From the NCBI RefSeq assembly GCF_988242995.1, contig NZ_OZ547043.1: 64,000 bases of DNA; one strand, written 5' to 3'. The position numbers and the translations under genes are program-made. How positions within the stretch are numbered: position 1 is the stretch's first letter; each line of letters begins with the position of its first letter. This document shows positions 14,701 through 41,179 of this stretch, one piece after another. Under the pieces are notes generated by a model. The model ran no database searches, was not told the origin of the DNA, and saw only the letters and a list, made by a program, of their open reading frames with translations.

Positions 14701-15683
14701 TTAAGTTAACTTTTGTACCAGATGCTGCTTCCGCAGAACTTACTATGAGTACATCAAAACAGCAGATTGTGGCCGATGGTAGTGAAAGTGCAACAGTGGA
14801 CATTCAGTTGGTTGATGCCAATAACAATGCGTTTACAGGCGATGTGGATTTAACGGTTACACCATCGACGGGAGCATCATTGACCAGTAGTAAACTGCAG
14901 TTGGATGCTCATGGACAGGCAACAACGCAGTTCACAGCATCGAAATCAGGCCAGTACACAATTCAGGCTGAGTATGTTCTAGATGGGAAACGTATAACCG
15001 CAAGCAAAAATATTGATGCCGTGACGGATGTGAAGGAGGCTGTGTTGGAGATCACATCATCTGCATCTTCGGCTGTAGTGAGCGATACCAACAATCTGAT
15101 ATTTACGTTACTGTTGAAAAGTACGTCAGGCGAAGTATTAAGTGGTCGAGTATTGAATATCAAGGCATCTGGGCCGTCCAAATATGGTGCGTTGGTGGTT
15201 GATAAAACCACTGTAACGACTGATGAGTATGGTCTGGCTACGGTAAGCGTACATGGTCGAACGGCTGGTTCGTATAAATTAACGGCGACCTTAGATGAAC
15301 TTGGCAGTGATGTTAGTGAGGTGAAGTCATTCTCTCTGTATGCTGATGAGGCAAATGGAGTATTGACACTGCATAAAGATGGAGGCTATGACACAGATGA
15401 TGGTACTCCAGTGGGGGTTTATGCCCGATTTGTTGACCATTTCGGCAATCCGTTATCTGGTACGGTTGAGTTTTCTGCTGGTAGTGAAGATAGTCCAAAC
15501 TCTCAACTGGTTAAAATGGAGCCTGCTACAGTAACGTTACACTGGACAGGTAATGCAGCCTCGGAGTTCAGCACCTATGAAAGCGGTTATCACTGGATTA
15601 AGGCCAAAATAACGAACAGCAAAAATACATATGAGAAAACAATAAGGACTTATGTTGTAAAGCTCCCTGAAAAGGATAGTTAA
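11775..15683 (+). CDS. Inverse-autotransporter (intimin/invasin-family) adhesin with repeated Ig-like domains
   Basis: 1302-aa ORF: long signal peptide, beta-barrel-like N-terminal region, then many Big-type repeats; AT-rich upstream region. Confidence 0.75.
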   Translation: MTTVNKKLKKTASGAITWSVIVTQILSPVSLSLIPANSFASSDNKDVTQIYASDERANKVASFAVSAGQSLANNNASSFAVNTLSTQATKEVVDWLQQYGNARIKLNVDDSFSLKDSSFDFLYPWLDTQDYVLFSQTSLHRTDDRNQTNIGLGIRHFTPDNAMLGANVFYDYDLSRSHSRAGFGVEYWRDYFRFGVNTYFGLSDWKDSRDIDDYLERPANGWDFSAEGWLPAYPQLGASIQFEKYYGKNVGLFGSDNLQENPYAVTGGISYTPVPLIKFSAQHKQGQSNVHDTTFGVEFNYRPGVSLAEQLSSDNVAVMREVQNRRYDFVERNNNIVLEYKKKHALKISLPESVQGDGESIIPVTLTINNASGGIKSVQWNDSVFTAAGGKISGNGTSWQVTLPAYKSEGVNSWNVGATVQDNRGNVSNYAVMNISVINSGVSTADSSFMLDGDSSPTISADGQSTHPIVLSLKDSNGKALTGLADDIEMSVEFTADSNSARQRETVTAPSLGAVEEISAGVYRSVLTAGSQAGTVRVTAKVQGKTFTLNIKQAAVIDSDVSTADSSFTLDGDSSPTISADGQSTHPIVLSLKDSNGKALTGLADDIEMSVEFTADSNNARQRETVTAPSLGAVEEISAGVYRSVLTAGSQAGTVRVTAKVMDKTFTLSIKQTAATEPDSEVSAVLTAAPAEQVVGYNINLQLAVKDSQGNAITGDNTLSFYALNQAEGVEFGAVTEKDGVYSATVTSKRAGKIRIGVKSGSHNFSGIEKEISFIEDRTQFAFSRIEASKNNALADGKQKNTVTVSLADRFGNVVPGYAVTLSLPAGVTQVGGEHAVSTDENGNAVFALISSTPGSYVIKAHAGSQMSTELTVTFASNMIGASLSLTPGNSSLISNIPANGKDAAVLNVQLTNTNASVNGQKIQLITSSEGLSVPTNIVTDSTGHVSVPLTTVRAGEYTVAARVTDGSHSVESGSVKLTFVPDAASAELTMSTSKQQIVADGSESATVDIQLVDANNNAFTGDVDLTVTPSTGASLTSSKLQLDAHGQATTQFTASKSGQYTIQAEYVLDGKRITASKNIDAVTDVKEAVLEITSSASSAVVSDTNNLIFTLLLKSTSGEVLSGRVLNIKASGPSKYGALVVDKTTVTTDEYGLATVSVHGRTAGSYKLTATLDELGSDVSEVKSFSLYADEANGVLTLHKDGGYDTDDGTPVGVYARFVDHFGNPLSGTVEFSAGSEDSPNSQLVKMEPATVTLHWTGNAASEFSTYESGYHWIKAKITNSKNTYEKTIRTYVVKLPEKDS
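13083..13796. repeat. Near-perfect tandem duplication (2 x 357 bp) inside the adhesin gene
   Basis: 13083-13439 and 13440-13796 differ at only a few positions; each encodes one 119-aa Ig-like repeat. Confidence 0.9.
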
Positions 15684-22448: not shown

Positions 22449-22895
22449 CTTATTATCCTGCATTGTTAAAAACGGCAGAATCCTATGTGACAACAATTAA
22501 ACGATAGTTAAATGGATTGATGAAAATTAAAACTATATAGGTGTGCGCTCAGACTATTGGAGGAAGTTGGGGACACTCAGAATCCTGTGGAATGAAATAA
22601 ACCGGTCTATCCGTCTATTACCCTTTTAGCTGCGCTGTATCGTCGCCGTATTCCCGCATTAACCATGACCGTAGCCCGACGGGGAATTCCTTCTGCGTGA
22701 GTGTGCGGGAATAATCAAAAACGATGCACACCGGGTTTTTACCGCGTTTATGGTTAGCGGGGGTGTCCCTCATGCTCGCCAGTCCTGTGCGGGGGTGGAA
22801 GAAACAGGACGTGTATTCAGGTCTGTGTGACTGTGGTCGCAAGACTTTTGTCGTTCAGCTATTAAATCCCATTACGAAGTAGACCAGAACGGCCA

Positions 22896-23110
22896 ACGGG
22901 TCCTTTCCGGCGATCCGACAGGTTACGGGGCGGCGACCTCGCGGGTTTTCGCTATTTATGAAAATTTTCCGGTTTAAGGCGTTTCCGTTCTTCTTCGTCA
23001 TAACTTAATGTTTTTATTTAAAATACCCCCTGAAAAGAAAGGAAACGACAGGTGCTGAAAACGAGCTTTTGGGCCTTTGTCGTTTCCTTTCTCTGTTTTT
23101 GGCCGTGGAA
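22896..23110. promoter_or_regulatory. Phage cos site (cosQ-cosN-cosB); cosN GGGCGGCGACCT at 22928-22939
   Basis: Matches the lambda cohesive-end 12-mer and downstream Nu1-binding repeat region, immediately upstream of nu1. Confidence 0.85.
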
Positions 23111-23116
23111 TGAACA

Positions 23117-23636
23117 ATGGAAGTCAACAAAAAGCAGCTGGCTGACATTTTCGGTGCGAGTATCCGTACCATTCAGAACTGGCAGGAACAGGGAATGCCC
23201 GTTCTGCGAGGCGGTGGCAAGGGTAATGAGGTGCTTTATGACTCTGCCGCCGTCATAAAATGGTATGCCGAAAGGGATGCTGAAATTGAGAACGAAAAGC
23301 TGCGCCGGGAGGTTGAAGAACTGCGGCAGGCCAGCGAGGCAGATCTCCAGCCAGGGACTATTGAGTACGAACGCCATCGACTTACGCGTGCGCAGGCCGA
23401 CGCACAGGAACTGAAGAATGCCAGAGACTCCGCTGAAGTGGTGGAAACCGCATTCTGTACTTTCGTGTTGTCGCGGATCGCAGGTGAAATTGCCAGTATT
23501 CTCGACGGGATCCCCCTGTCGGTGCAGCGGCGTTTTCCGGAACTGGAAAACCGACATGTTGATTTCCTGAAACGGGATATCATCAAAGCCATGAACAAAG
23601 CAGCCGCGCTGGATGAACTGATACCGGGGTTGCTGA

Positions 23637-23662
<26 letters not shown>
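23117..23662 (+). CDS. nu1: Terminase small subunit
   Basis: 181-aa ORF near-identical to lambda Nu1. Confidence 0.95.
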
Positions 23663-27343
<3,681 letters not shown>

Positions 27344-29060: not shown

Positions 29061-29315
29061 ATGTCGATGTACACAACCGCCCAGCTGCTGGCGGCAAATG
29101 AGCAGAAATTTAAGTTTGATCCGCTGTTTCTGCGTCTCTTTTTCCGTGAGAGCTATCCCTTCACCACGGAGAAAGTCTATCTCTCACAAATTCCGGGGCT
29201 GGTAAACATGGCGCTGTACGTTTCGCCGATTGTTTCCGGTGAGGTTATCCGCTCCCGTGGCGGCTCCACCTCTGAATTTACGCCGGGATATGTCAAGCCG
29301 AAGCACTTAGCATGA
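29061..29315 (+). pseudogene. E: Major capsid gene E, 5' fragment (codons 1-84) truncated by the satellite insertion
   Basis: MSMYTTAQLLAANEQKFKFDPLF...GYVKPKH then two foreign codons and stop; the rest of E resumes at 40394. Confidence 0.9.
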
Positions 29316-29468
29316 CTTTCTGAGGCTTTCGTGTAGTTGCTGGTTTTTACACTTAATCTTTTGATAATAAAGAATAAGTTTATCTGGTGCTTTCACTGAA
29401 TTTTCCTCGTTATCTGTGTGTTGCAATCATCTCTGTATTGCAGCTTGTATTGCTTTTTGGGGCTAAAA

Positions 29469-30704
29469 ATGGCTGGCGAGAACAAACTGAGCGACAAAGC
29501 GCTTAAAGGATATCTGGGGAAACCCAGAGAAAAGCAGATCACCATTGCTGATGGAAAGGGGCTTTCTATTCGTGTGAGTACTAAAGGGGCTGTGAGCTTT
29601 GTTTTCTTCTACAGGTTAGCAGGTGGCCGGGCTGCTCCGGTCTGGCTAACGTTGGGTAAATATCCTGATATGTCACTCAAACAGGCAAGGGAAAAGCGCG
29701 ACGAGTGCCGTGGTTGGTTGGCTGACAAACGTGATCCGCGTATCCAGATTAAGATTCAGGCTGAAGAACGCTTAAAGCCGGTTACAGTGGAGGATGCACT
29801 AAATTACTGGTATGAAAATTACTGTAAGGTGCGTCGTAAAACTCATGCTGTAACGCTTGGCAGATTTCGAAAGCATATCTTTCCCTATATCGGTCATTTG
29901 CCCGTAAATGACACTCACCTATATGAATGGCTGGACTGTTTTGACCGAATTAAACGTAATGCACCAGTTATGGCGGCGTATGTTTTTTCTGACACTAAAT
30001 TAGCTCTTCGTTTTTGTCGGGTACGCCAGTACGCGACGTGTGATGCTTTAAAGGATTTGCGCATGAGTGATGTGGGGCAGATTGCAGGTAAGCGGGATCG
30101 GGTTCTGGATGAAGCCGAACTCGGCCAGCTCTGGAAGGCAATTTTTGTCGAGCCTGATTTAAAACTAATGTCTGAATACACGCGAAAAATGTTTGTGCTT
30201 TGTACAGTATTTGGATGTCGAATGAGTGAAGCCCGATTATCAGAATGGAGCGAATGGGATCTCGAAAGTTGGGTTTGGACTGTACCAAAAGATCACTCAA
30301 AAACTGGTGTTGAAATCGTCAGACCAGTACCTGAAATTCTACGACAGTGGGTAACGGATGTTCACGAAGAGACAAAACATACTGGTTATGTGCTGGGAAG
30401 TCTGCGAATTAGAGAAAGCGTAAGCAAGATTGGGGGGAAAATCGGTAAACGTTTGGGCCATGAAAAACAATGGTCACTACACGACCTTAGAAGAACGCTA
30501 TCTACTCATCTAAGTGATCTCGGTGTTGAATTTTATGTAGTAGAACAACTGTTAGGCCATGCGCTACCTGGCGTGGCAGGTGTTTACAACCGGAGTAAGT
30601 TTATGGCTAAAAAACTGGATGCTCTGGAACTCTGGACTACATATCTCAATAGCATCGCAGCTGCTGATTCAAAAGTGACAATCCTCAAACAAAAGGTTGG
30701 TTAA
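29469..30704 (+). CDS. Satellite tyrosine integrase (P4-type)
   Basis: From MAGENKLSDKALKGYLG...; catalytic region HDLRRT...LLGH...VYNRS; located at the element's left end. Confidence 0.85.
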   Translation: MAGENKLSDKALKGYLGKPREKQITIADGKGLSIRVSTKGAVSFVFFYRLAGGRAAPVWLTLGKYPDMSLKQAREKRDECRGWLADKRDPRIQIKIQAEERLKPVTVEDALNYWYENYCKVRRKTHAVTLGRFRKHIFPYIGHLPVNDTHLYEWLDCFDRIKRNAPVMAAYVFSDTKLALRFCRVRQYATCDALKDLRMSDVGQIAGKRDRVLDEAELGQLWKAIFVEPDLKLMSEYTRKMFVLCTVFGCRMSEARLSEWSEWDLESWVWTVPKDHSKTGVEIVRPVPEILRQWVTDVHEETKHTGYVLGSLRIRESVSKIGGKIGKRLGHEKQWSLHDLRRTLSTHLSDLGVEFYVVEQLLGHALPGVAGVYNRSKFMAKKLDALELWTTYLNSIAAADSKVTILKQKVG

Positions 30705-30705
30705 C

Positions 30706-30933
30706 ATGAAAAAAATGGCAATTGTTGATAAAAAGGGTCTGGAGTACATTCCTAACATTGACCGAATGATCCGTGAGAAAGAATGTCGGGAGCTAACCAC
30801 TCTTGCGAACAGCACACGCTGGAAGCTGGAGAAGGAAGGAAAATTTCCTAAGCGGATCAAGATTGGTTCCACTGCTGTTGCATATCGTCTTTCAGAAGTG
30901 CAGGCATGGATTCGAGGTGAGTGGGTAGTTTAA
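30706..30933 (+). CDS. alpA: AlpA-family HTH regulator/excisionase
   Basis: 75-aa ORF directly after int; the ORF-track start at 30697 is TTG, ATG at 30706 preferred. Confidence 0.7.
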   Translation: MKKMAIVDKKGLEYIPNIDRMIREKECRELTTLANSTRWKLEKEGKFPKRIKIGSTAVAYRLSEVQAWIRGEWVV

Positions 30934-31002
30934 ATTATCTCAGAATAAAATATTATGAATTACTGATTTGAGAATTTGTACTCAAATCAGTAATAACATT
31001 CT

Positions 31003-31539
31003 TTATAAGAGATTAAATCCAAATAAAGAGTAATCATATACCGGGGTGCATTGCATCCCACTGAATATGCTGATGTTTTTTTCTGTTTCTATCCTTTTTT
31101 CAATAAGTTGTTGTATATTTTTACAGTACAATTTGTGTGTGATGTTATTATCGTAAGCCTGATATAGCAACGTCAATGTTGATGCTATGAAACATGCAGA
31201 AAGAAAATGAACTAGTACATGTGAGCGTTTTTTGGTTGTCCATGATGCATTCGCTTGTGAAATATAAATCATTCTGAGAATGATAATGATGATAGACAGT
31301 AACAGACCACTCAATAAAATAAGTATTGGGTTTGCGTATTTAATTAATGGTTGAGAGCAAAAAACTATTATAGCTCCTGTGACTGCGTATGAGAAAAAGG
31401 AGTAATTAAACTTCTTACTCCTTCTCTCAAGTATTTTAATTTCATCTTGTGTGGGGGTTTTAGATGCCTCTAATATAAGTTTATTAAATGTTTCTGTTAT
31501 CTTGTTTTTTGTGTTTGTGGCTATTTTTTTTAGATTCAT
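31003..31539 (-). CDS. Hypothetical AT-rich membrane protein (2-3 predicted TM helices)
   Basis: 178-aa ORF with hydrophobic segments AVTGAIIVFCSQPLI and ILILLSGLLLSIIIIIL; convergent with alpA. Confidence 0.5.
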   Translation of the reverse strand: MNLKKIATNTKNKITETFNKLILEASKTPTQDEIKILERRSKKFNYSFFSYAVTGAIIVFCSQPLIKYANPILILLSGLLLSIIIIILRMIYISQANASWTTKKRSHVLVHFLSACFIASTLTLLYQAYDNNITHKLYCKNIQQLIEKRIETEKNISIFSGMQCTPVYDYSLFGFNLL

Positions 31540-31889
31540 AGCATTCTAACTCCCTTAACTTATTTATTACTTTCTCTTTATGATAAGAGAGGGGAATGAC
31601 TTGGTAAAGTGATTTGTCATTAATAATGATAATCCTTGCGATAAATATTTCTGCAAGTTATTTACCTGTTTGTTGCTATCTTGTTAAGCGTTGGGTGTGG
31701 TTTATGTTTGGAGCGACTTTATTTAATCGTGATTTTATGGATTTATATTTATATCCTGTAAGATAAGCGCATGTTAGTTCAGGAGTAGTGTCAGATAAAA
31801 TTATTCGGAGTAGAACTACCTTTTCTGTTTATTGCCAGTATTTACATAGCAATGCGCCGTAGTTACTCACATCACGGCGCTGATACTAA

Positions 31890-32195
31890 TTATTCAGATT
31901 CTTTGGCTTTACGCCGCTGGAGTTCTTCACGAGCGACGGCTACGAGTTGCCCGATTTCCTCCGCTGCCTTGATACCGATTTGTTCGACCTTAGCTAAGGC
32001 ATCCAGTGAAGACACGAGGGGATTTTCTCCGCTTCCTTCTGCCTGGCGGCGGGCGATTTCACCGCGCATGGCGGTTACGATAAATCCGGCATTGCTTTCA
32101 CCGTCCAGCTTAACGGATTCCATCCCTTGCATAACATCTAGTGGGACTCTGACAGTTGTCAGTTGTGATTTTGCGTTTTTGTTAGCCGTTGCCAT
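31890..32195 (-). CDS. Putative ribbon-helix-helix regulator (candidate satellite repressor)
   Basis: 101-aa ORF; TVRVPLDVMQGMESVKLDGESNAGFIVTAMRGEIARR fits a beta-strand/helix/G-x-S/helix RHH pattern; divergent from the primase operon. Confidence 0.4.
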   Translation of the reverse strand: MATANKNAKSQLTTVRVPLDVMQGMESVKLDGESNAGFIVTAMRGEIARRQAEGSGENPLVSSLDALAKVEQIGIKAAEEIGQLVAVAREELQRRKAKESE

Positions 32196-32256
32196 TTCTG
32201 AAACTCCTAATCATCGGTGTGTTTCAGTATACACAAAAAAAGAAATACAAAAAGCC

Positions 32257-32292
32257 TTGACGTGTGTTTCATGCGCTCATAACATGAAACAC
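32257..32292 (+). promoter_or_regulatory. Promoter (TTGACG-17 nt-TAACAT) overlapped by a palindromic operator
   Basis: Inverted repeat GTGTTTCATG (32264-32273) / CATGAAACAC (32283-32292) straddles the -10 element. Confidence 0.5.
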
Positions 32293-32385
32293 ACCGAAAG
32301 GATTGTTGAAATACAAAGAGCAACGCCCCGCAGTGCTGGGAACACATACGGGGCGTCTAACCAACAACGTAAACTAGGAGCCGTT

Positions 32386-32583
32386 ATGGTTGCTGTAAAT
32401 CATATACCACACCTTGTACACACACAAACGGCCTTTGTGTGGCGTTTTCTGGCACTGAGTGCCGGAGAATCTCAAATCATCCACGTAACCGCCTGGACGG
32501 AACGCGAAGCGCGTAGCCGTTGCCCGTCCGGTTGTGTTGCTGTATTCGCTGCAAAAATCCGCCAGGGAGTGAGTCATGCTTAA
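32386..32583 (+). CDS. Small hypothetical protein, first gene of the satellite rightward operon
   Basis: 65-aa ORF with AGGAG RBS 5 nt upstream of ATG 32386; the longer ORF-track frame from 31852 is rejected. Confidence 0.45.
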   Translation: MVAVNHIPHLVHTQTAFVWRFLALSAGESQIIHVTAWTEREARSRCPSGCVAVFAAKIRQGVSHA

Positions 32584-32761
32584 AACCTTCCGTGTATTTG
32601 CCCGAGCTGTTAACCCAATAGGCCACACAATTGGTATCGCTCAGAATGTGAAGGCTGTTAATGTTCAGACGGCTATTGCTGCGGTGAGAAGCGAATCATC
32701 AGAATATGGCTTATCACAAGTCATTATTTCAGCAGTGTATGAATTAAAAGAGGTGCATTAA
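32576..32761 (+). CDS. Small hypothetical protein
   Basis: 61-aa ORF; start overlaps the preceding stop (ATGCTTAA). Confidence 0.35.
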   Translation: MLKTFRVFARAVNPIGHTIGIAQNVKAVNVQTAIAAVRSESSEYGLSQVIISAVYELKEVH

Positions 32762-32952
32762 TGCAGGAAATCACATTACACGAAGCCGCTGAACGTGCGC
32801 ACCAGACAGAAATTATTTGCCGCCTTCTTGAGGTATATCCGAACAAAATTACAGATGCTGATATATCCGCGCTGGCGAGCCTACTGGCGCGCCTTTCGGG
32901 AAGTGTCGCTAGTTTCCTCATTGAGGAAGAAAGTAAGCTGGTGGGGGATTAA
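32761..32952 (+). CDS. Small hypothetical protein
   Basis: 63-aa ORF translationally coupled to neighbours. Confidence 0.35.
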   Translation: MQEITLHEAAERAHQTEIICRLLEVYPNKITDADISALASLLARLSGSVASFLIEEESKLVGD

Positions 32953-33174
32953 ATGAATACAGAACGGGAAGTCTTTTTTAAATTGTTAGCATGTGCAGAA
33001 AGTTCATTAACTTTAAATAATTCAGCAAAAGCAATATTAAATATGTGGCTTGATTGCATAAATGACAATGAAGATGCAAATATTGCTTATGGCCTGTTGT
33101 CACTTATTGATGAATCAGCAGAAAAACTCAATGACGCAATAAATAGTGCCCTGCTATCAAATAAGTCGAGTTAA
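32953..33174 (+). CDS. Small hypothetical protein
   Basis: 73-aa ORF, AT-rich. Confidence 0.35.
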   Translation: MNTEREVFFKLLACAESSLTLNNSAKAILNMWLDCINDNEDANIAYGLLSLIDESAEKLNDAINSALLSNKSS

Positions 33175-33191
33175 GTCGAGGAATAAATAAT

Positions 33192-33491
33192 ATGGAAATG
33201 AAAAATTCTGGCTTTATTGCCAGCGGCCCCGCTCGGCCTGAATTTATGAACGGCGATATTTACCGCGATAAATACGGCGGCACGGTAACGATTAAAGGCG
33301 TGGCAGAACGGCGCATCACTTACCGCCGTGAGGGGTATAGCTATGACTGCGTGATGCCTGTTTATCAGTTCCGGCGTGATTTTTCCCTGGTATATGCCGC
33401 ACCCCGCAGTAAGCCCATCAGCAGGGAAAAAGCGCGGGGAAACATCCAGAAAATGAAAAGCATGATTAACGCATTCAGGGGCAAAAAATGA
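33192..33491 (+). CDS. Hypothetical protein
   Basis: 99-aa ORF ending at the primase start. Confidence 0.4.
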   Translation: MEMKNSGFIASGPARPEFMNGDIYRDKYGGTVTIKGVAERRITYRREGYSYDCVMPVYQFRRDFSLVYAAPRSKPISREKARGNIQKMKSMINAFRGKK

Positions 33492-35239
33492 AACTGGCAC
33501 CGAACTTAAAAAAACAGCCACGCGACAGACTGACAGAGGTAATCATCTTTGCAGGTAGTGATGCGTGGAGCCATGCGAAAGAGTGGCGGGAATGGGCGGG
33601 TAAACATATTGCCGCCGACGATGTGCCGCCTGTCGTGCTGGCTGATGAGCAACTGAAAAATATCACCGATTACCGGATCATTGATGAAGATCGTCAGTGT
33701 GTGCGTGTTTACCGCGCAGGACATATCACAGAGCACAGCATGACGCAGATTGTTACGTTACTGGCTGTGGCTGGAGTGAAGACCGTACACGAATACGCGG
33801 GGATTACTGACACCAGCCCAGTGGATTTATCCGAGCAGTTGCCGCGACTCAAAGAGGAATGCGAGCGTGGGGAAAGTCTGGTGCTTAATCTTCCGACGAA
33901 GCAAAAGGCGCAACTTTCACAGATGGCAGACAGTGAACGTGCACAACTACTTGCCGATCGCTTTGATGGTGTGTGTGTTCATGCAGAAAGTGAAATCGTC
34001 CACGTATGGCGCGGCGGGGTATGGTGTCCGGTCAGCACAATGGAGCTGAGCCGCGAAATGGTGGCGATCTATTCAGAGCACAGGGCCACGTTCAGCAAAC
34101 GTGTAATCAATAACGCCGTGGAAGCGTTAAAAGTTATTGCCGACCCCATGGGGGAGCCGTCCGGTGATTTGCTACCGTTCACTAATGGTGTGCTTAACCT
34201 GAAAACGGGGGAATTTTCTCCGCACTCGCCGGAGCACTGGAGCACCACGCACAATGGCATTGAGTACACGCCACCAGTAGCAGGGGAAAACATCCGCGAT
34301 AATGCGCCAAATTTCCATAAATGGCTTGAACATGCTGCAAGAAAAGACCCGCGCAAGATGATGCGTATATGTGCCGCGTTATACATGATTATGGCGAACC
34401 GCTACGACTGGCAGATGTTCATTGAGGCCACCGGAGACGGGGGAAGCGGTAAGAGTACATTTACCCATATTGCCACCCTGCTTGCTGGCAAACAGAACAC
34501 CGTAAGCGCGGAGATGACATCACTCGATGATGCAGGAGGGCGCGCGCAGGTTGTCGGGAGTCGTCTTATCGTCCTTGCCGATCAGCCGAAATATACGGGG
34601 GAAGGCACGGGCATCAAGAAAATCACGGGAGGCGATCCCGTTGAAATTAACCCGAAATATGAGAAGCGATTCACGACGATAATAAGGGCGGTGGTACTGG
34701 CAACCAATAACGACCCGATGATCTTTACCGAACGGGCCGGAGGTGTGTCACGCCGTCGGGTGATTTTCCGGTTCGACAACATTGTAAGGGAGGACGAAAA
34801 AGACAAGGAATTACCGGAAAAGATAGCGGCAGAAATCCCCGTAATTATCCGCCGCTTGCTGGCTAATTTTGCTGACCCTGAAAAGGCACGGGCTTTATTA
34901 CTGGAACAGCGTGACGGTGATGAAGCTCTGGCAATAAAGCAGCAAACGGATCCGGTTGTTGAGCTTTGCGCGGCGCTGGAGTTTCTGGAGGAAGCTCGTG
35001 GGCTAATGATGGGCGGTGGTGGTGACACCGTGAAGTACACGACCAGAAACAGCCTTTACCGTGTCTATATGGCCTTCATGGCATACACAGGAAAGGGGAA
35101 ATGTTTGAGCGTGAATGAGTTCGGAAAGGCTATGAGGTCAGCGGCGAAAGTTTACGGATATGAATATATTACGCGAAAAGTTAAGGGAGTCACGCAGACC
35201 AACGCAACGACTACTGATGATTGCGATGCGTTTTTATAA
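33488..35239 (+). CDS. Primase/SF3-helicase replication protein
   Basis: 583-aa ORF with Walker A (TGDGGSGKST) in the C-terminal half and primase-like N-terminal half; followed by iterons. Confidence 0.8.
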   Translation: MKLAPNLKKQPRDRLTEVIIFAGSDAWSHAKEWREWAGKHIAADDVPPVVLADEQLKNITDYRIIDEDRQCVRVYRAGHITEHSMTQIVTLLAVAGVKTVHEYAGITDTSPVDLSEQLPRLKEECERGESLVLNLPTKQKAQLSQMADSERAQLLADRFDGVCVHAESEIVHVWRGGVWCPVSTMELSREMVAIYSEHRATFSKRVINNAVEALKVIADPMGEPSGDLLPFTNGVLNLKTGEFSPHSPEHWSTTHNGIEYTPPVAGENIRDNAPNFHKWLEHAARKDPRKMMRICAALYMIMANRYDWQMFIEATGDGGSGKSTFTHIATLLAGKQNTVSAEMTSLDDAGGRAQVVGSRLIVLADQPKYTGEGTGIKKITGGDPVEINPKYEKRFTTIIRAVVLATNNDPMIFTERAGGVSRRRVIFRFDNIVREDEKDKELPEKIAAEIPVIIRRLLANFADPEKARALLLEQRDGDEALAIKQQTDPVVELCAALEFLEEARGLMMGGGGDTVKYTTRNSLYRVYMAFMAYTGKGKCLSVNEFGKAMRSAAKVYGYEYITRKVKGVTQTNATTTDDCDAFL

Positions 35240-35252
35240 AAAATGGCAATGG

Positions 35253-35482
35253 TTATCTACCTTGTCTACCTGACTGAAAGAAAATACTTTTATTTCAATG
35301 TATTAATGCAGGTAGATAACTATTTTTCACTGTCTACCTGTTATCTACCTTATCTACCCATTTTTGTAGACAGGTAAGGAGACGGGTAGAGATGAGGTAG
35401 ACAGCTATTTGGGGCTGTCTACCTCCCTGAAACCCGCGCCATTACTGGCCTGATAACTAATCAGGTAGACAAGGTAGACAAG
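35253..35482. repeat. Satellite replication origin iterons (at least 10 copies of GGTAGACA/TGTCTACC in both orientations)
   Basis: Dense cluster of the 8-bp core in a 230-bp non-coding stretch just 3' of the primase gene. Confidence 0.75.
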
Positions 35483-35528
35483 GTGGTGGTGCACAAAAAA
35501 CTTTTTAAACGAGGGGGTAAAAATAAAA

Positions 35529-35786
35529 ATGCACACATCAGGAAAACTGAACAAACATATAAAGCCACATTACCGCGCCCTTGATATGGCTGAACACTGG
35601 CTAAGGGTGGCGATTAAGGCAATAGACCGCAACGCCGGGGAAGGATACGCGAAAGCACATCCCGAACTGATAAGCGCATTCATGACAACGGCGGCTGCAA
35701 ACTTTGCCACGCTGACCGAACGGGAGATTGCTGAAGCGGAGGAAGTGACAACAATCAATATTAAGTCCGGAGAGCAGGCAGCATGA
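35529..35786 (+). CDS. Hypothetical protein
   Basis: 85-aa ORF upstream of and coupled to ssb. Confidence 0.4.
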   Translation: MHTSGKLNKHIKPHYRALDMAEHWLRVAIKAIDRNAGEGYAKAHPELISAFMTTAAANFATLTEREIAEAEEVTTINIKSGEQAA

Positions 35787-36232
35787 CGGCGCAAATATCA
35801 GTTTACGGGCGGTTGGTGGACGACCCGCAGACAAAACAGACCAGCAAGGGCACCCCCATGACGCTGGCGCGTATGGCGGTATCACTGCCCTGCAGTCAGT
35901 CGGATGACGGTCTGGCGACGTTGTGGTTATCTGTCCTGGCGTTTGGCAGACAAGCCGACGCGCTGGCAAAGCATCACAAAGGCGAACTCCTGAGCGTGGC
36001 GGGTAACATGCAGATGAGCCAGTGGACTGGACAGAACGGCGAAACGCGGCAGGGCTGGCAGGTTATCGCAGACAGCGTAATCAGTGCGCGATCGGTGCGA
36101 CCGGGCGGCAAAAAAGGCCAACAGGGGCAGGCTACTGACGCACTGAACAGAGCAAAACAACAGGCAGATCAGCAAGGAAGCCAGCCACCAGAGGGAGATA
36201 ATGAGCAATGGGGAGATGATATCCCGTTTTAA
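35783..36232 (+). CDS. ssb: Single-stranded DNA-binding protein
   Basis: 149-aa ORF with Gly/Gln-rich linker and acidic C-terminal tail ending DDIPF. Confidence 0.8.
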   Translation: MTAQISVYGRLVDDPQTKQTSKGTPMTLARMAVSLPCSQSDDGLATLWLSVLAFGRQADALAKHHKGELLSVAGNMQMSQWTGQNGETRQGWQVIADSVISARSVRPGGKKGQQGQATDALNRAKQQADQQGSQPPEGDNEQWGDDIPF

Positions 36233-36448
36233 ATATTGCCAATAAAAAAAGCCGGAAAAAATAAATTTTCCGGCATGCTACATAAATCCCGACCAAAGGG
36301 AGTGAAGATATTAACACTAATTGTCCGCACTGAAGTTGTCACCCCAAAACTTTATACAACATTGCACTCGGTTGCATGTGTTCGCATGACAAATATCGGT
36401 GATAGCATATATCCACAATTATTTTTAATGAATGCAAAGAGGATGCGT

Positions 36449-37489
36449 ATGGTTGATTTATATTCGCCTACTCAGCTTGTACAGGTAGTTAATGCTGTAG
36501 ATGTACAAAAACAACTAAATGCGTTATTTACCAGTTTGTTTTTTACTCGCTCGGTAATGTTTGAATCGCGCGATATTATTCTTGATACAATCGACGATCC
36601 AAATATCCCAATTGCAGCGTTTTGTTCTCCTATGGTGGGTAGTAAAGTTTCACGTGACGAAGGGTACGAATCAAAAACAATTCGTCCAGGCTATATGAAG
36701 CCGAAAAGCAGCATTGATCCAAATAAGTTAGCTGTGCGCCCTGCTGGTGTGTCACCTGAGCAATACAATGCTTTTGGGGCGCGTAATATTAAAGTTAAAC
36801 AGGCGATTGTAAATCAGGCTAAAGCTATTCGTGCACGTATTGAATGGCTTGCTGTTCAGGCAATCACAACGGGGAAAAATATCATTGAGGGCGATGGTAT
36901 TGAACGTTATGAGCTGGACTGGAATATAAAACCACAAAATATCATCACTCAGTCTGGCGGTACTGAGTGGTCAGGTAAGGATAAAGAAACTTTTGATCCA
37001 AATGATGATATTGAGAGCTACGCAGAATTTAGTGAGGGCGTCACTAATATCATCATTATGGGTGGTAATGTATGGAAGAAATACCGTTCATTCAGAGCGA
37101 TAAAAGAGGCTTTGGATACCCGTCGTGGTTCTAATTCCGAACTGGAAACGGCCCTTAAAGACCTTGGTGATTCGGTGAGTTTTAAAGGGTATATGGGCGA
37201 TGTTGCGATTGTTGTTTACAGCGGGCGTTATACCGACGAGGACGGAACAGAAAAACATTTCCTTGATCCTGATTTGATGGTGCTTGGCAATACGGCTCTT
37301 CAGGGGATTGTCGCCTATGGCGGTATTCAGGATCCGGAGCTAATCCGAATGGGGCTGACTAAAGCCGAACTTGCACCGAAAAACTATATTGTGCCTGGTG
37401 ATCCGGCTATTGAATATGTGCAGACACATTCAGCACCACAGCCAATACCGGCCCGCATCAATCGTTTTGTTACCGTTCGCATTGGCTAA
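36449..37489 (+). CDS. Satellite-encoded major capsid protein homologue (lambda E-like)
   Basis: 346 aa; aligns with lambda E along its length (e.g. IITQSGGTEWSGKDKETFDPNDDIESYA vs NITQSGGTEWSKRDKSTYDPTDDIEAYA; DTRRGSNSELETALKDLG; GDVAIVVYSG). Confidence 0.8.
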   Translation: MVDLYSPTQLVQVVNAVDVQKQLNALFTSLFFTRSVMFESRDIILDTIDDPNIPIAAFCSPMVGSKVSRDEGYESKTIRPGYMKPKSSIDPNKLAVRPAGVSPEQYNAFGARNIKVKQAIVNQAKAIRARIEWLAVQAITTGKNIIEGDGIERYELDWNIKPQNIITQSGGTEWSGKDKETFDPNDDIESYAEFSEGVTNIIIMGGNVWKKYRSFRAIKEALDTRRGSNSELETALKDLGDSVSFKGYMGDVAIVVYSGRYTDEDGTEKHFLDPDLMVLGNTALQGIVAYGGIQDPELIRMGLTKAELAPKNYIVPGDPAIEYVQTHSAPQPIPARINRFVTVRIG

Positions 37490-37498
37490 GGGGGAGCA

Positions 37499-37840
37499 AT
37501 GGCTACTCATTACACTGAACTCATGGCTGGCACTGAAGCACTGGTGACTACGCTGGGGATATTTTCAGCTAATAAAGGGGTAATTCCTGCATTTACGCCA
37601 CTGATGCAGGAAGATGCAACAGGTGCACTGGTGGTATGGGATGGTTCGAGCGTAGGTAAAGCGGTTTATGTTTCCGCTGTACAAATCGACACCGCGAAAA
37701 AAACACAGGCTCAGGTCTATAAGACAGGTGTCTTAAATGTTGATGCTCTGAACTGGCCTGAGTCTGTTAAAGAACTGTCAGTAAAGGTTGCAGCGTTTGT
37801 TGGCTCAGGTATTTCTGTTCAGCCGCTGGCTCGTGTGTAA
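37499..37840 (+). CDS. Satellite-encoded head decoration protein homologue (lambda D-like)
   Basis: 113-aa ORF; TPLMQEDATGALVVWDGSSVGKAV...VYKTG parallels lambda [22 protein letters not shown]...FYKSG. Confidence 0.7.
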   Translation: MATHYTELMAGTEALVTTLGIFSANKGVIPAFTPLMQEDATGALVVWDGSSVGKAVYVSAVQIDTAKKTQAQVYKTGVLNVDALNWPESVKELSVKVAAFVGSGISVQPLARV

Positions 37841-37851
37841 AGGGGGATACA

Positions 37852-38235
37852 ATGCAGAATGATTACAATGACCTTAAGCCAATTGCCGAAATGATGTACC
37901 CGAATCCAGCTGTAGAGGAATTAAAAGCTATCGCTGACAAAATGTGTTTAAGCGAGCGCCTTGTTGATATGAATCAGGTGATGGAAATTACAACCCTGAG
38001 TCGTCGTACACTGCTAAACCTTGAGGCTAGTGGAGAGTTCCCGGAGCGTGTGCAGGTTACGGAAGGGCGTAAGGCCTGGTATTTAAGTGAAGTGATCGAC
38101 TGGATAAATAATATTCCTCGCGCTTCTGAATATTGCCGCGTACCTGTCCCAAAAAAGCCAGATGCGGCGCTATGCCTCAAGATTGAGCGTGTACGCCGCA
38201 ATGCACGGGATGGTCGCTATAAGCTGATTGGTTGA
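37852..38235 (+). CDS. Winged-HTH (AlpA/MerR-excisionase-like) protein adjacent to satellite cos
   Basis: 127-aa ORF; C-terminal MEITTLSRRTLLNLEASGEFPERVQVTEGRKAWYLSEVIDWINN HTH; strong RBS; ends 20 bp before the cos-homologous region. Confidence 0.6.
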   Translation: MQNDYNDLKPIAEMMYPNPAVEELKAIADKMCLSERLVDMNQVMEITTLSRRTLLNLEASGEFPERVQVTEGRKAWYLSEVIDWINNIPRASEYCRVPVPKKPDAALCLKIERVRRNARDGRYKLIG

Positions 38236-38257
38236 TGAAATTAGGGCCCGCTCTGGC

Positions 38258-38465
38258 TGGCGGGTCCTTTCCGGTGATCCAGAACGTTACGGGGCGTCAG
38301 GCGCGCAGATTCTTGCTATTTATGACAATTTTCTGCGATTTGCCGTTTCCGTTCTTCTTCCTCGTAACTTAGTGTTTTTACTAGAAATACCCTCTAAAAA
38401 GAAAGGAAATGACAGGTGCTGAAAACAGGCTTTTGGGTCTCCGTCATTTCCTTTCTCATTTTTAT
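38258..38465. promoter_or_regulatory. Satellite cos site homologous to the prophage cos (variant cosN GGGCGTCAGGCG at 38292-38303)
   Basis: About 210 bp alignable with 22896-23110; flanking and downstream repeat segments conserved, 12-mer differs at 5 positions. Confidence 0.75.
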
Positions 38466-38718
38466 CTAAAAGTAAGCATCGAGGCCACCCCAAATGCTTA
38501 TAGAGGTTATTGTGTCACTATGCGTACTGTTCAGGATTTAAAGTAGCAAGACATCTAGTTGCTTGCAGTTTTGGCGAATGATGTGAGGTTCTCTATAACA
38601 GATAATGTAACAAGTTACTGATATATTCTGTTATGGTTGACTTTAAATTTTGTTGCTCCTTCAATGAATTATTGAGGGGTAAAAATTAGGCGTGATAAGA
38701 ATCGATCACGCCTATTGT

Positions 38719-40035
38719 TTATCTTGAAGAAATTTTAGGCAGGCTTTTTAAAAATAAATCTTTATTTCTACTTGCATCAGTTAAAAGTGTTAGGAATATT
38801 TTATCTGTAGGAGTGCATGTGCTCTTGTTTAACAGTAATTCACCAAGTTTCTGTAATCGAGAGAATTGCCCATCCTCTTGGATTCTGTGACGAAGTGTAC
38901 TATCATTTTTAATAACATCAACAAATGCAGAAACCATGTTAATATCAAAGTGTTCAAACATTTCCAATATTAAAGGTGCAGCCCCATTTGAATAAAAATT
39001 CTTCCTTCCATACTGATAGCTGAAACCACGATGGCCAACATAAGTTTTTGTAATGGCTGAAACAAATTCAACAATATTATCTTCAGGGACGAAACTCGAG
39101 AATGGTAATAATTGGGTTACGATTTTTTCCTCTTCTGACCAATTATCTAAAGACTCGGTGAGTTTATTAATGAGAGGCTCAATAATAACTTTTCGGGATG
39201 CAGGGCTAATATACATCAGTCCATCTACCAATAGTATGAATTGTTGTGCCTTCTCTATCTTATTGTTGTTTCCTGAAACTAAATACTTGTCAAATTGTTG
39301 GCCGACTTTACGTCGGTCGTCTTTTGAAAGTAATGTCCATAAAATAGGTGCGCAAAATTCAATGTTGTTTCTGAGTTCACTTGATATATTGGATGAGCAG
39401 TATGTGCCAAAAAAACGAGAGGATAATTCACTGATATAAATTGCAGGTAGATCTGAAAAGGCTTGCTTAACTGCCAGACTATTTTTATTAAATGTTGCCG
39501 AATCCATTTCTGAAAGATATGTAGTTATATCTATGATGGCTGGTGGAAACTCTTTAGAAAGAACGTATTTATTACAATCATTAATCAGGTTCACTACTTT
39601 GATTAAATCAGGGTCGCTACTTTGTGGATGTCCACCAAATAGATTCCTGGTTTCTCTAGCTTGTTGTAATAGTTTCTGACCTTCTCGATCGATAACTCCT
39701 ATTTTAAATGCTCCATCTATTAAATCAAAGTCGCTCACATAATCCTGAAAATCTTCATACGTTTTAATTTCTTTTTTTTGTTTACACTCTTTGTTGAATA
39801 GATCTAGGCTACGATGAATTATCTTTTGACGTAAATCATCAACTACAGCATTCCAGTAAGCAGTGATGGCACTTCTATAACCTTTTACAGGAAGAACTCT
39901 TATTGCTTCTGAAATATATGGGCAGTCAACTACATCATGCCTCACAGTTGAGAGCGCAGTTTGTAACAATGTAACTTCTGTAGAGTCTAGTGGAGTTGGC
40001 TGCACTAAATGAGAACTTATCTCTGTACCCTTCAT
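38719..40035 (-). CDS. AT-rich 438-aa protein with HEPN-like R-x5-H motif (candidate anti-phage/abortive-infection protein)
   Basis: Single long ORF in the satellite's variable end; RNLFGGH at residues 130-136; no ATPase motifs; own AT-rich promoter region 40036-40150. Confidence 0.6.
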   Translation of the reverse strand: MKGTEISSHLVQPTPLDSTEVTLLQTALSTVRHDVVDCPYISEAIRVLPVKGYRSAITAYWNAVVDDLRQKIIHRSLDLFNKECKQKKEIKTYEDFQDYVSDFDLIDGAFKIGVIDREGQKLLQQARETRNLFGGHPQSSDPDLIKVVNLINDCNKYVLSKEFPPAIIDITTYLSEMDSATFNKNSLAVKQAFSDLPAIYISELSSRFFGTYCSSNISSELRNNIEFCAPILWTLLSKDDRRKVGQQFDKYLVSGNNNKIEKAQQFILLVDGLMYISPASRKVIIEPLINKLTESLDNWSEEEKIVTQLLPFSSFVPEDNIVEFVSAITKTYVGHRGFSYQYGRKNFYSNGAAPLILEMFEHFDINMVSAFVDVIKNDSTLRHRIQEDGQFSRLQKLGELLLNKSTCTPTDKIFLTLLTDASRNKDLFLKSLPKISSR

Positions 40036-40393
40036 TTCAGGATTTTCCTATTCTTTTCCATTTTTCTACTCTATTGAATTTGAAAAAGATATCAAGTTCG
40101 TTCTTGCCAGTTTTAAGTGGAAAATTTGATGTTACCTTATTGAGATAAGGCAGTTCTCTATAACCTATTGTTATTAATTATTTTTATTTTTTTCCAATTC
40201 AGATGTTTAGGGCTAAGAAGTTAAGTGAGAGTTCACAGCAAAACTGCTTCTAGTTCCTCACCGAGGAGCAAAAGGTTAAGACAGCGTACTTTGTATTGCA
40301 CAATGTATTGCAGAACCTTCTTTCGAAAGCTACAACAATCAATTTTATATTGAAAATTCAATCATATCCTTTCGATATTGACTCATATAACCC

Positions 40394-41179
40394 AAGCATG
40401 AGGTGAATCCGCAGATGACCCTGCGTCGCCTGCCGGATGAAGATCCGCAGAATCTGGCGGACCCGGCTTACCGCCGCCGTCGCATCATTATGCAGAACAT
40501 GCGTGACGAAGAGCTGGCCATTGCCCAGGTCGAAGAGATGCAGGCAGTTTCTGCCGTGCTTAAGGGCAAATACACCATGACCGGTGAAGCTTTCGATCCG
40601 GTTGAGGTGGATATGGGCCGCAGTGCGGCCAACAACATCACGCAGTCCGGCGGCACGGAGTGGAGCAAGCGTGACAAGTCCACGTATGACCCGACCGACG
40701 ATATCGAAGCCTACGCGCTGAACGCCAGCGGAGTGGTGAATATCATCGTGTTTGATCCGAAAGGCTGGGTGCTGTTCCGTTCCTTCAAAGCCGTCAAGGA
40801 GAAGCTGGATACTCGTCGCGGCTCTCATTCCGAGCTGGAGACAGCGGTGAAAGACCTGGGCAAAGCGGTGTCCTACAAGGGGATGTATGGCGATGTGGCC
40901 ATCGTCGTGTATTCCGGACAGTACGTGGAAAACGGCGTCAAAAAGAACTTCCTGCCGGACAACACGATGGTGCTGGGGAACACTCAGGCACGCGGTCTGC
41001 GCACCTATGGCTGCATTCAGGATGCGGACGCACAGCGCGAAGGCATTAACGCCTCTGCCCGTTACCCGAAAAACTGGGTGACCACCGGCGATCCGGCGCG
41101 TGAGTTCACCATGATTCAGTCAGCACCGCTGATGCTGCTGGCTGATCCTGATGAGTTCGTGTCTGTACAACTGGCGTAA
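40394..41179 (+). pseudogene. E: Major capsid gene E, 3' fragment (codons 83-341)
   Basis: From KHEVNPQMTLRRLPDEDPQ... to ...DEFVSVQLA, matching lambda E downstream of the break. Confidence 0.9.

Follow-up and report, generated by a model that had tools for sequence, protein, structure and literature searches.

Satellites that carry a helper-like cos, read directly by the helper terminase with no adaptor in between, are known from P4 with its helper P2 and from the cos-type SaPIs such as SaPIbov5. These belong to other phage families with other terminase types, and unlike the element described here they are not embedded in their helper. Eco567.11capE, in prophage 50icd of E. coli NRG857c, does resemble it in this respect: it measures ~11 kb, lies co-oriented within a homologue of capsid gene E near codon 80, and has the same gene order, namely int, alpA, a Bro zone, primase/ssb, capsid and decoration. 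This 11capE element and its helper share a cos-like stretch of 258 bp that is 90% identical (Tommasini, Mageeney & Williams, bioRxiv 10.1101/2022.07.18.500453). That satellite and helper share a cos is therefore already known from this preprint, in which the 12-mer difference, the 127-aa gene and the TerS-like gene of relatives discussed below go unmentioned.

The PICI EcCICFT073 offers a second comparison, since its cos1 likewise follows capsid and decoration genes and is lambda-like (PMC6739421, PMC9026076). EcCICFT073 depends on the TerS and TerL of its helper and uses phage-sized heads (Fillol-Salom et al. 2019, PMC6739421; Murialdo & Feiss 2022, PMC9026076), features that we count as putatively shared with the present element. 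At the level of cos the pattern is opposite, however. EcCICFT073 retains a canonical cosN and cosQ next to an unrelated cosB that lacks I1, R2 and R1, and carries a TerS-like Rpp downstream, whereas the present element retains the helper cosB, has a changed 12-mer, and leaves the Rpp/Nu1 position without a gene. Where rpp genes are known, they occupy the Nu1 position behind cos and serve PICI cosB sequences that differ from those of the helper (PMC6739421, PMC9026076).

The window, by which we mean the whole stretch of 64,000 nucleotides analysed here, holds a lambdoid prophage sited at argU, whose capsid gene E is interrupted at 29305/40394 with an AAGCA core on both sides (HES site E:Phage_cap_E:80). 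The 5’ fragment of E (29061-29305, plus strand) ends at the attL core (29301-29305), the 3’ fragment (40394-41179, plus strand) includes the attR core (40394-40398), and rejoining the two, as predicted excision would do, restores the frame ...KPKHEVNPQ.... Between them lies a satellite of 11.09 kb (29306-40398, plus strand), delimited by sequence comparison and the description in bioRxiv 10.1101/2022.07.18.500453. Its first gene is int (29469-30704), directly followed by alpA (30706-30933), and further along come a primase gene (33488-35239), ori iterons (about 35250-35480), ssb (35783-36232), a capsid gene (36449-37489), a decoration gene (37499-37840), the gene for a 127-aa winged-helix protein, and cos, after which a cargo gene encoding 438 aa (38719-40035) runs on the minus strand; PADLOC and NCBIfam gave no match for its product. 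The HES zones follow one another in the usual order: int and alpA make up the integration zone, Bro comes next, then replication with primase and ssb, and finally the late zone with capsid and others. Relatives inserted in E that were found here have integrases 93-100% identical, and 46 complete E. coli genomes contain near-identical copies of the satellite. At 11.1 kb and residing in capsid gene E, the element belongs to the helper-embedded satellites of the 11capE type (Tommasini et al. 2022). It differs from Eco567.11capE in that the latter’s host prophage sits at icd, and in its cargo genes; the cargo gene varies among copies, and the cargo slot beside cos is actively exchanged. A repeat search of the element returned the ori iterons and an att-arm motif, with a doubled GTATTGC near both att sites that is a candidate target of AlpA-type proteins.

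The cos of the helper (22894-23110, plus strand) consists of cosQ, cosN (22928-22939, GGGCGGCGACCT), R3, I1, R2 and R1, with Nu1 next at 23117. The terminase genes Nu1 (23117-23662) and A (23637-25562) occupy 23117-25562 on the plus strand, and their products would also act on the satellite cos. Both cos sites of this composite are co-oriented, separated on the 58.2-kb circle by 15,364 bp in one direction and by ~42.9 kb in the other. An earlier note on this DNA, made from the letters alone, had proposed that the satellite copies the cosQ/cosB architecture of its helper, R repeats included. Aligning the two regions bears this out: positions 38258-38459 match 22894-23095 without a gap, with 160 of the 202 bases identical (79% pairwise, the figure of 86% from the same alignment being mean column identity), and all lambda subsites are in register. 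When the satellite cos was compared to phage records by blastn, lambda-like cos sites were returned at E = 7e-52, far above chance.

All subsites of the satellite lie on the plus strand. The cosQ region (38258-38274) is identical to the helper in 14 out of 17 positions, and its heptamer GGGTCCT (38262-38268) is in the helper’s register, which also agrees with the lambda-type distance of ~30 bp to the nick downstream in the top strand. After the stop codon of the 127-aa gene the sequence reads as a GC-rich hairpin, and its 3’ arm overlaps this region. Next is cosN (38289-38306), in which ACG and CGC flank the 12-mer GGGCGTCAGGCG (38292-38303); judging from the lambda register, nicks would fall before 38292 on the top strand and after 38303 on the bottom strand. 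R3 (38341-38356), a predicted TerS binding site at the lambda equivalent of bp 50-65 as defined in PMC9026076, has a core, CGTTTCCGTTCTT, identical to that of the helper. Between R3 and R2, the I1 region (38357-38394), where IHF putatively bends the DNA, retains 31 of 38 bases. R2 (38395-38411, an inverted predicted TerS site) and R1 (38442-38459, likewise a predicted TerS site) each differ from the helper by one G-to-A change in the core, turning CGTTTCC into CATTTCC. No indels relative to the helper occur from cosN to R1, leaving the spacing between cosN and R3 unchanged, and the named subsites are 85% identical to the helper’s versus 78% for the spacers. Phage homology stops ~8 nt past R1, and a Nu1-like gene is absent behind the satellite cos. 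Judged by these features, a lambda-type cos is complete at 38258-38459, its elements from cosQ and cosN through R3 and the I1 region to R2 and R1 being spaced as in lambda. The best explanation for its origin is that it was derived from lambdoid helpers and exchanged repeatedly with them.

The earlier note had also pointed to a divergent cosN 12-mer, and rightly so. GGGCGTCAGGCG and the helper’s GGGCGGCGACCT match in only 7 of 12 positions, differing at 6 (where the satellite has T for G), 8, 9, 10 and 12, while the CG pairs beside both nick positions, GGGCG as the left half and C at position 11 are kept. Taken as a whole, the 12-mer is not significantly more divergent than the remaining site (P = 0.066 at a background mismatch rate of 19.5%); for positions 6-12 alone, a subset chosen post hoc, 5 of 7 are changed, with an uncorrected P = 0.004. 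In lambda-like phages, cosQ is conserved, as is the left half of the end, but bp 7-12 of cosN are naturally variable and immaterial to nicking, with lambda TerL remaining efficient despite changes there; N15 and phiD326 have such changes at bp 9 and 12, and Gifsy-1 at bp 8, 9 and 11 (PMC4669245). The present end resembles those of N15, phiD326, Gifsy-1 and mEp213/LLS (for the latter, Vahanian et al. 2017, Virology 509:140, cited in PMC12315714) in that the changes are concentrated in bp 7-12, with cosQ, the left half and the nick CG pairs conserved. It does carry five differences from lambda, including one at position 6, against the two or three described for these phages.

The cosN divergence is therefore best explained as ordinary, that is, as one allele of a natural polymorphism at positions that gpA ignores when anchored to cosB, because four of the five changes fall within the tolerated bp 7-12 and position 6 varies naturally. 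Variants at position 6 were indeed seen in a prophage and in satellites, and it is only from such natural variants that tolerance of the change would follow. The suggestion of the earlier note that nicking specificity is relaxed fits well with this, such relaxation being established for lambda terminase (PMC4669245), and our survey of lambda-like cos sites adds further natural alleles. GGGCGGAAGGCG occurs in three prophage contigs, two of which extend into gene A and encode a gpA sharing 99% identity with that of this helper; the same 12-mer is found in satellites carrying a 79%-identical winged-helix protein. GGGCGGCGTCCG, the sequence implied by N15’s changes at bp 9 and 12, occurs in 10 prophage contigs. 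The main consequence of the allele lies elsewhere: with 5 of 12 bases mismatched, satellite and helper ends should not anneal to one another.

As for GGGCGTCAGGCG itself, it is confined to satellites in this sample, unlike the phage alleles of N15, phiD326 and Gifsy-1. It was found exclusively behind the 127-aa gene, in 23 contigs when searching IMG/VR for the exact pattern, and at 46 loci when searching by protein, whereas neither INPHARED (by blastn) nor a set of 5,426 complete E. coli genomes yielded a phage-context cos with this 12-mer. By blastn, no phage record in INPHARED was more than 83% identical to the satellite cos, and a chimeric query joining helper flanks to the variant 12-mer gave no full-length match above 97.2% in the 5,426 E. 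coli genomes, which is the value of a canonical 12-mer. Where the encoded 127-aa protein is at least 95% identical, the locus carries this allele in 46 cases and the canonical one in ~31, with a few others besides. In all three composites examined, a satellite with GGGCGTCAGGCG is paired with a helper that has the canonical end. Within the family, sequences to the left of cosN are nearly invariant, and from about position 13 rightwards they become mosaic, with several cosB types. An identical 127-aa protein adjoins at least three cosN alleles and several of these cosB types. Furthermore, the satellite cos variant described here recurs essentially unchanged across several genomes and contigs.

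The gene encoding this protein, which we refer to as wHTH127 (37852-38235, plus strand), is the last of the late module of capsid, decoration and wHTH, and ends 22 bp before the cos homology and 26 bp before the cosQ heptamer. Its description in the earlier note as an AlpA/excisionase-like protein is well supported. Its PHROG match, at 1e-49, is to family 2790 (‘excisionase and transcriptional regulator’), and close homologues carry Pfam PF05930 (Phage_AlpA). The GIsul2 excisionase (PDB 8c3t) is the top match by sequence, at E = 2e-9, and also tops the fold ranking, in which RdfS excisionase, BldC and a mycobacteriophage Xis follow. The fold comparison makes use of an AlphaFold model built from 116 sequences (pLDDT 82), whose core (residues ~36-90) is 42% identical to 8c3t and superposes on it at an rmsd of 0.8 A. 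While wHTH127 thus shares its wHTH core with the GIsul2 excisionase and the recombination directionality factors AlpA, Xis and RdfS, it differs from AlpA/Xis/RdfS in its extra terminal helices and in having its gene in the late module instead of beside int. These extensions, two N-terminal helices (8-33) and one at the C-terminus (105-119), were seen only in Enterobacterales satellites. Even in other genera, where identity falls to 50%, the gene stays beside cos, and the recognition helix of the protein, TTLSRRTLLNLE, hardly varies; this cross-genus context was taken from contigs encoding homologous proteins, and the scans of the locus itself covered four distant loci on genome contigs and 80 on viral contigs, the latter all at 95% identity or more. 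A motif search for its target across five cross-genus relatives brought up cosQ alone, which is not decisive: no non-coding 11-mer other than CGGGTCCTTTC is present in four or more of these five. The repeat search revealed no repeat tied to wHTH127, and PADLOC and NCBIfam returned nothing for it. Most likely, wHTH127 is a DNA-binding protein of the AlpA/excisionase family that is expressed with the capsid module, and acts as a regulator or recombination directionality factor and not as a partner of terminase, although its conserved adjacency is compatible with a function related to cos.

Homology to Rpp was considered for wHTH127 and rejected on the basis of a PDB sequence search, which gave no match to RppC, of hhalign, with probabilities of 0.1% against RppA and 1.4% against Nu1 (RppA against Nu1, as a control, gave E = 3e-6), and of the fold search, where the DNA-binding domain of Nu1 comes 45th and none of the 50 matches listed is RppC. 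Neither does wHTH127 have the genetic setting of an Rpp, given that its gene lies upstream of cos, and R3, R2 and R1 of the adjoining cosB are of the helper type. A better candidate for interfering with packaging may be sought in the relatives, many of which have a TerS-like gene after cos, with WP_074514846.1 as an example of its product. The product of that gene is 100% identical to the helper Nu1 over its first 102 residues and then diverges, combining a helper-identical DNA-binding half with a satellite-specific C-terminal half. This gene has been lost from the present element, which could, as a result, package less well than its relatives.

Taken together, we consider it probable that 38258-38459 is the working cos of a PICI-like satellite, cut by unmodified helper terminase with the 12-mer being tolerated, and that wHTH127 is a regulator or recombination directionality factor. 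Upon induction the satellite would excise and replicate, after which helper Nu1 and IHF would bind the helper-type R sites of its cos. This complex would position helper gpA on the satellite cosN, where the enzyme would introduce nicks 12 bases apart. Several satellite units would presumably be packaged per head, with cosQ serving for termination. Since the satellite cosB is of the helper type, there is nothing to redirect; an Rpp-type adaptor would be unnecessary, and none is encoded by this element.

This reading must be weighed against others, two of which were raised by the earlier note. The divergent 12-mer could reflect adaptation to another lambdoid helper, the terminase of which prefers or requires GGGCGTCAGGCG. 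Satellites and phages do hold some alleles in common, such as GGGCGGAAGGCG, and the mosaic cosB segments of the family resemble various helpers. However, the exact allele occurs only behind the 127-aa gene, neither the best phage record nor the chimeric query came closer than stated above, the helpers of all three composites have canonical ends, and terminases of lambda and N15 hybrids show no cosN specificity (PMC4669245). We regard such adaptation as highly improbable. The other proposal, that wHTH127 redirects packaging by binding either the satellite cos or helper Nu1 and biasing terminase towards the satellite, as an Rpp analogue from another fold lineage, can draw on several observations. 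Its gene immediately precedes cos in satellites from E. coli, Kosakonia, Superficieibacter, Kluyvera and Buttiauxella, and is one ORF off in Pluralibacter; it belongs to the capsid/decoration late module, while the integration module has an alpA of its own. The wHTH fold is also common to TerS DNA-binding domains (7lwr, 7lxs, 7lw0 and 1j9i are among the fold matches), and both the near-invariance of the recognition helix and the conservation of cosQ could be taken to mean that it acts there. Nevertheless, excisionases top the fold matches and similarity to RppA, RppC and Nu1 is lacking, the identical protein sits beside different cosN alleles and unrelated cosB types without covariation, and a helper-type cosB does not require redirection. 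Moreover, the same slot in EcCICFT073, upstream of cos, encodes an unrelated 137-aa protein, and of its genes only c1503 (rppA) interfered with lambda (PMC6739421). A redirecting role for wHTH127 is therefore distinctly improbable.

If, on the other hand, the 12-mer is not neutral, cosN could be a joint at which satellite and helper exchange DNA, with terminase cutting at both cos sites and the otherwise incompatible ends being joined. Exchange at cosN would explain why helper sequence makes up cosB and has replaced the 5’ portion of terS, and why alleles coexist within the family, canonical and variant ones both being found beside the 127-aa protein, even in its 100% identical form. It would also agree with the near-invariance left of cosN and the mosaic from about position 13. 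Mismatched cohesive ends can in fact be ligated, giving rise to both alleles after replication, at a ~4-fold cost in yield for a 2-base mismatch (PMC4669245), and according to Tommasini et al. such satellites capture late-gene clusters from helpers. Yet this evidence is entirely indirect, ordinary homologous recombination within the conserved cosB would yield an equal mosaic, hybrid ends with 5 of 12 bases mismatched should anneal very inefficiently, and the canonical end in about a third of the family means that incompatibility is not required. We deem an exchange joint rather unlikely. Quite unlikely, too, is its wider form, in which cosN is a site-specific joint that supplies helper cosB and 5’ terS, possibly seeding late-gene capture, with the 12-mer as both footprint and partial barrier, and/or in which wHTH127 is a new cos-proximal DNA-binding factor. 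Lastly, the satellite cos may be a decaying, disused relic in a copy that is perhaps immobile after losing its TerS-like gene. Tommasini et al. detected no virions for the equivalent composite (bioRxiv 10.1101/2022.07.18.500453), the TerS-like gene that many relatives keep is missing here, and R2 and R1 have one substitution each. Then again, all subsites and spacings are intact, the homology ends just after R1, as though cut back to what is needed for function, this cos variant recurs with hardly a change, and the active exchange in the neighbouring cargo slot points to a mobile, selected element, making a relic very unlikely.

A working cos read by the helper’s own terminase remains our preferred reading. 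The odd sticky end does not point to a terminase of new specificity, nor does the wHTH gene represent a new Rpp. This satellite family reverses the strategy of EcCICFT073, in that the TerS-binding sites of the helper are copied and not replaced, and therefore the satellite would compete directly for unmodified helper terminase. The composite, with ends mismatched at 5 of 12 bases, provides a natural system on cohesive-end compatibility in mixed infections.

A full-length lambdoid prophage lies at argU in the window, and its major capsid gene E is interrupted by an 11.09-kb satellite (29306-40398) lying in the same orientation as the late operon. The 5' part (29061-29305) and 3' part (40394-41179) of gene E meet the satellite at junctions that both carry an AAGCA core, and rejoining them would restore the reading frame (...KPKHEVNPQ...). 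Together, prophage and satellite form an island of 58.2 kb at the argU/DLP12 site, bounded by the tRNA-Arg(UCU) gene (2814-2890) and a 30-nt repeat of its 3' end (61080-61109), with fimH/fimZ-like genes flanking one side and appY/ompT/envY-like genes the other; appY- and ompT-like genes at the right end lie inside the island. The helper cos (~22894-23110) is followed by Nu1 (the small terminase, TerS, from 23117), A, W, B, C and D, and the early/nin region contains a 1302-aa ORF (11775-15683) whose sole PHROG matches (phrog_7803, phrog_16344) are of unknown function. The same insertion, with gene E annotated as two pieces, was found by Megablast in 46 complete E. coli genomes. The element is a helper-embedded satellite (HES) of the 11capE type of Tommasini, Mageeney and Williams (bioRxiv 10.1101/2022.07.18.500453), who demonstrated excision and replication of the composite and late excision of the satellite, and did not detect virions. 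They had already reported a 258-bp stretch that 11capE shares, at 90% identity, with its helper where lambda has cos; their text is silent on the cosN 12-mer difference and on the 127-aa gene discussed below.

The satellite encodes, in order, int, alpA, a variable zone, a primase, ori iterons, ssb, a capsid-E homologue, a decoration (HDPD) homologue, a 127-aa protein (37852-38235), a cos-like region and a 438-aa cargo protein, and thus carries its own E-like and D-like genes while interrupting the gene E of its helper. Direct and inverted iterons (TTATCTACCTTGTCTACC and variants; 35248-35481) downstream of the primase gene presumably form the satellite replication origin. Just inside both ends lies a doubled motif, GTATTGC ... 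GTATTGC (29431-29453 and 40289-40311), which is probably the 'doubled DNA sequence motif' that Tommasini et al. describe for attP of HES elements; Int or AlpA-type proteins are candidates for binding it. The cargo gene (38719-40035, minus strand; PHROG 27609) occupies the slot between cos and attR, and its product received no PADLOC, NCBIfam or Pfam-type assignment. In relatives this slot is taken by DUF262+HEPN, DUF2971 or Abi_C genes, which suggests a hotspot for the exchange of accessory or defence genes.

The satellite cos indeed resembles that of the helper, as the earlier note had proposed: from cosQ to R1 the two align with zero gaps, and 160 of 202 positions (79%) are identical, counted from -34 to +168 with the first base of the 12-mer (helper 22928, satellite 38292) as position 1. 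Identity amounts to 14/17 in the cosQ region, where GGGTCCT is intact, 3/3 in both the ACG before and the CGC after the nick, 14/16 in R3 with an unchanged core, 31/38 in the I1 region, 15/17 in R2 and 14/18 in R1, the latter two both changing CGTTTCC to CATTTCC. Phage homology stops ~8 nt past R1, and no Nu1-like sequence follows the satellite cos in the window element. By blastn, the satellite cos matches lambda-like phages at E = 7e-52. The 12-mer itself, at 7/12, does differ from that of the helper as had been noticed, albeit only where variation appears to be tolerated; its overall divergence above background is not significant (P = 0.066), and the clustering of the differences in positions 6-12 reaches P = 0.004 in a post hoc test.

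The divergence of the satellite cosN follows a known rule. Feiss et al. 2015 (PMC4669245) report that mutating bp 7-12 of cosN has very little effect, as cosB-bound TerS anchors TerL for bottom-strand nicking, and that conservation is seen in cosQ, in the left half of the end and in the CG pairs at the nicks. In the same study, the differences from lambda lie at bp 9 and 12 in N15 and phiD326 and at bp 8, 9 and 11 in Gifsy-1, and neither lambda nor N15-hybrid terminase is specific for its cosN; PMC12315714 cites a later survey (Vahanian et al. 2017). We scanned IMG/VR with a cosQ...cosN pattern leaving the 12-mer free. Among the matches listed, most prophages carry the canonical end, at least ten prophage contigs (L037, L045, L046, L048, L100-L102, L111, L129, L130) carry GGGCGGCGTCCG, which is the sequence implied by the reported N15 changes at bp 9 and 12, at least three (L041, L071, L095) carry GGGCGGAAGGCG, at least one (L034) carries GGGCGACGACCT, and at least one contig with a satellite-like context carries GGGCGGCAGACG. 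Nu1 and gpA (TerL) of the GGGCGGCGTCCG prophages are 81-90% identical to those of the window helper, and gpA of the GGGCGGAAGGCG prophages is 99% identical in both contigs that reach gene A. In satellites of other genera, GGGCGTCGACCT, GGGCGGCAGACT and GGGCGACGACCT occur. All alleles found agree in positions 1-5, in the C at position 11 and in both flanks (ACG, CGC), and positions 6-10 and 12 vary, so that each of the five satellite changes falls at a position that is variable elsewhere.

Could the satellite end instead be adapted to a different lambdoid helper? In IMG/VR, 23 contigs contain the exact variant allele together with its flanks; the 127-aa gene lies directly upstream in 22, the remaining contig beginning too near the site to show an upstream gene. 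Identity to the satellite cos does not exceed 83% in any phage record found. When a chimeric query joining the window helper's cos flanks to the variant 12-mer was run against 5,426 complete E. coli genomes, no full-length match exceeded 97.2%, the value that corresponds to the canonical 12-mer, and in all three composites examined (the window, L236 and L237) the satellite has the variant end and the host prophage the canonical one. Taken together, the position of the variant allele behind the 127-aa gene, the missing phage match and the canonical helpers leave a dedicated helper without support, the variant allele being absent from phage contexts in this non-exhaustive sampling.

That an AlpA/excisionase-like winged-helix (wHTH) gene precedes the satellite cos was borne out by matches of its 127-aa product to PHROG 2790 (1e-49), of its homologues to PF05930, and by its sole PDB sequence match, 8c3t (E = 2e-9). 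The structure model (116 sequences, pLDDT 82, core >95) predicts a wHTH core at residues 36-90 with two additional N-terminal helices and one C-terminal helix. Foldseek against the PDB ranks 8c3t, the GIsul2 excisionase, first (42% identity, rmsd 0.8 A), ahead of RdfS excisionase, BldC and a mycobacteriophage Xis; DNA-binding domains of small terminases rank lower, with Nu1 (1j9i) at 45, and RppC is absent among the 50 matches listed. The suggestion that this protein redirects packaging like the Rpp proteins of PICIs fails on sequence, fold, gene position and logic. By hhalign it matches RppA of EcCICFT073 (L235) with a probability of 0.1% and Nu1 with 1.4%, where the control RppA versus Nu1 gave E = 3e-6. 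Furthermore, rpp lies downstream of cos and exists because the cosB of PICIs diverges from that of the helper (PMC6739421; PMC9026076), whereas the 127-aa gene lies upstream of a cos with a helper-type cosB. In EcCICFT073, capsid and decoration are followed by a 137-aa protein of unrelated sequence and then by cos1 and rppA. A GC-rich hairpin (GGGCCCGC-TCTGGCTG-GCGGGTCC; 38244-38268) follows the 127-aa gene's stop codon, its 3' arm overlapping cosQ, and EcCICFT073 has a clear terminator hairpin at the equivalent place (15503-15527 of L235); in both satellites, cos seems to mark the end of the late operon. We regard the 127-aa protein as a predicted DNA-binding protein that is made together with the late module and acts as a regulator or directionality factor, and consider a cos-related role unlikely.

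Its full-length architecture is restricted to a small Enterobacterales family, outside of which the AlpA core alone matches. The capsid-decoration-wHTH-cos module is kept in Buttiauxella, Kosakonia, Superficieibacter and Kluyvera; Pluralibacter has one ORF between the wHTH gene and cos. Among loci encoding the protein at ≥95% identity, a protein-based search raised the variant allele (GGGCGTCAGGCG) to 46 loci, next to ~31 with the canonical allele and one each with GGGCGGAAGGCG and GGGCGGCTGACG; three further GGGCGGAAGGCG loci encode a 79%-identical protein. Across these loci there is almost no variation from the stop codon as far as cosN, cosQ included, and rightwards from about position 13 several cosB types occur, one of them lacking lambda R sites and paired with a Nu1-like protein 34% identical to helper Nu1. 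Therefore, the same 127-aa protein covaries with neither cosN nor cosB, which argues against a specificity factor.

If the family has a packaging-interference protein, the candidate is the TerS-like protein of relatives, encoded in many members directly after cos, a position equivalent to that of Rpp. In L237 (17483-18034) its first 102 residues, comprising the DNA-binding and dimerisation domains and matching the TerS fragment in PDB 6hn7, are 100% identical to Nu1 of the resident helper, and its C-terminal ~80 residues are unrelated to those of that Nu1. Genes of this kind also occur in L009, L019, L020, L157, L158, L173, L178 and L181-L183, and a second type in ~40 loci (e.g. L216-L232). 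The satellite-type C-terminal half and its second version (~45% identical) were found only behind the wHTH gene, and gene A was never seen to come next; in this region, identity to phage TerS proteins is only 30-40%. L236 retains a mere 64-aa remnant, and the window element has none.

The window satellite thus has a complete lambda-type cos with correct spacing and helper-type R sites, and no adaptor gene. Helper Nu1 and IHF would bind R3-I1-R2-R1, gpA would nick at 38291/38292 and 38303/38304, about four 11.1-kb units would fill a head, and cosQ would serve termination. In the unexcised 58.2-kb composite, the satellite cos lies 15,364 bp from the helper cos in the packaging direction, leaving ~42.9 kb from satellite cos round to helper cos. 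A molecule cut from satellite cos to helper cos would be head-sized, but its ends would be mismatched at 5 of 12 positions; cyclisation persists with a two-base end mismatch at a ~4-fold cost (PMC4669245). That this mismatch matters, and that two-site cutting underlies the mosaic starting at cosN, is speculation that we consider rather unlikely. Both the element and its helper-like cos are known from published work. Packaging by the helper-type cos proposed here is of modest interest as a strategy opposite to that of EcCICFT073, as are the five-difference end allele restricted to satellites, the conserved AlpA-like gene adjoining cos, and the chimeric TerS-like gene of relatives.
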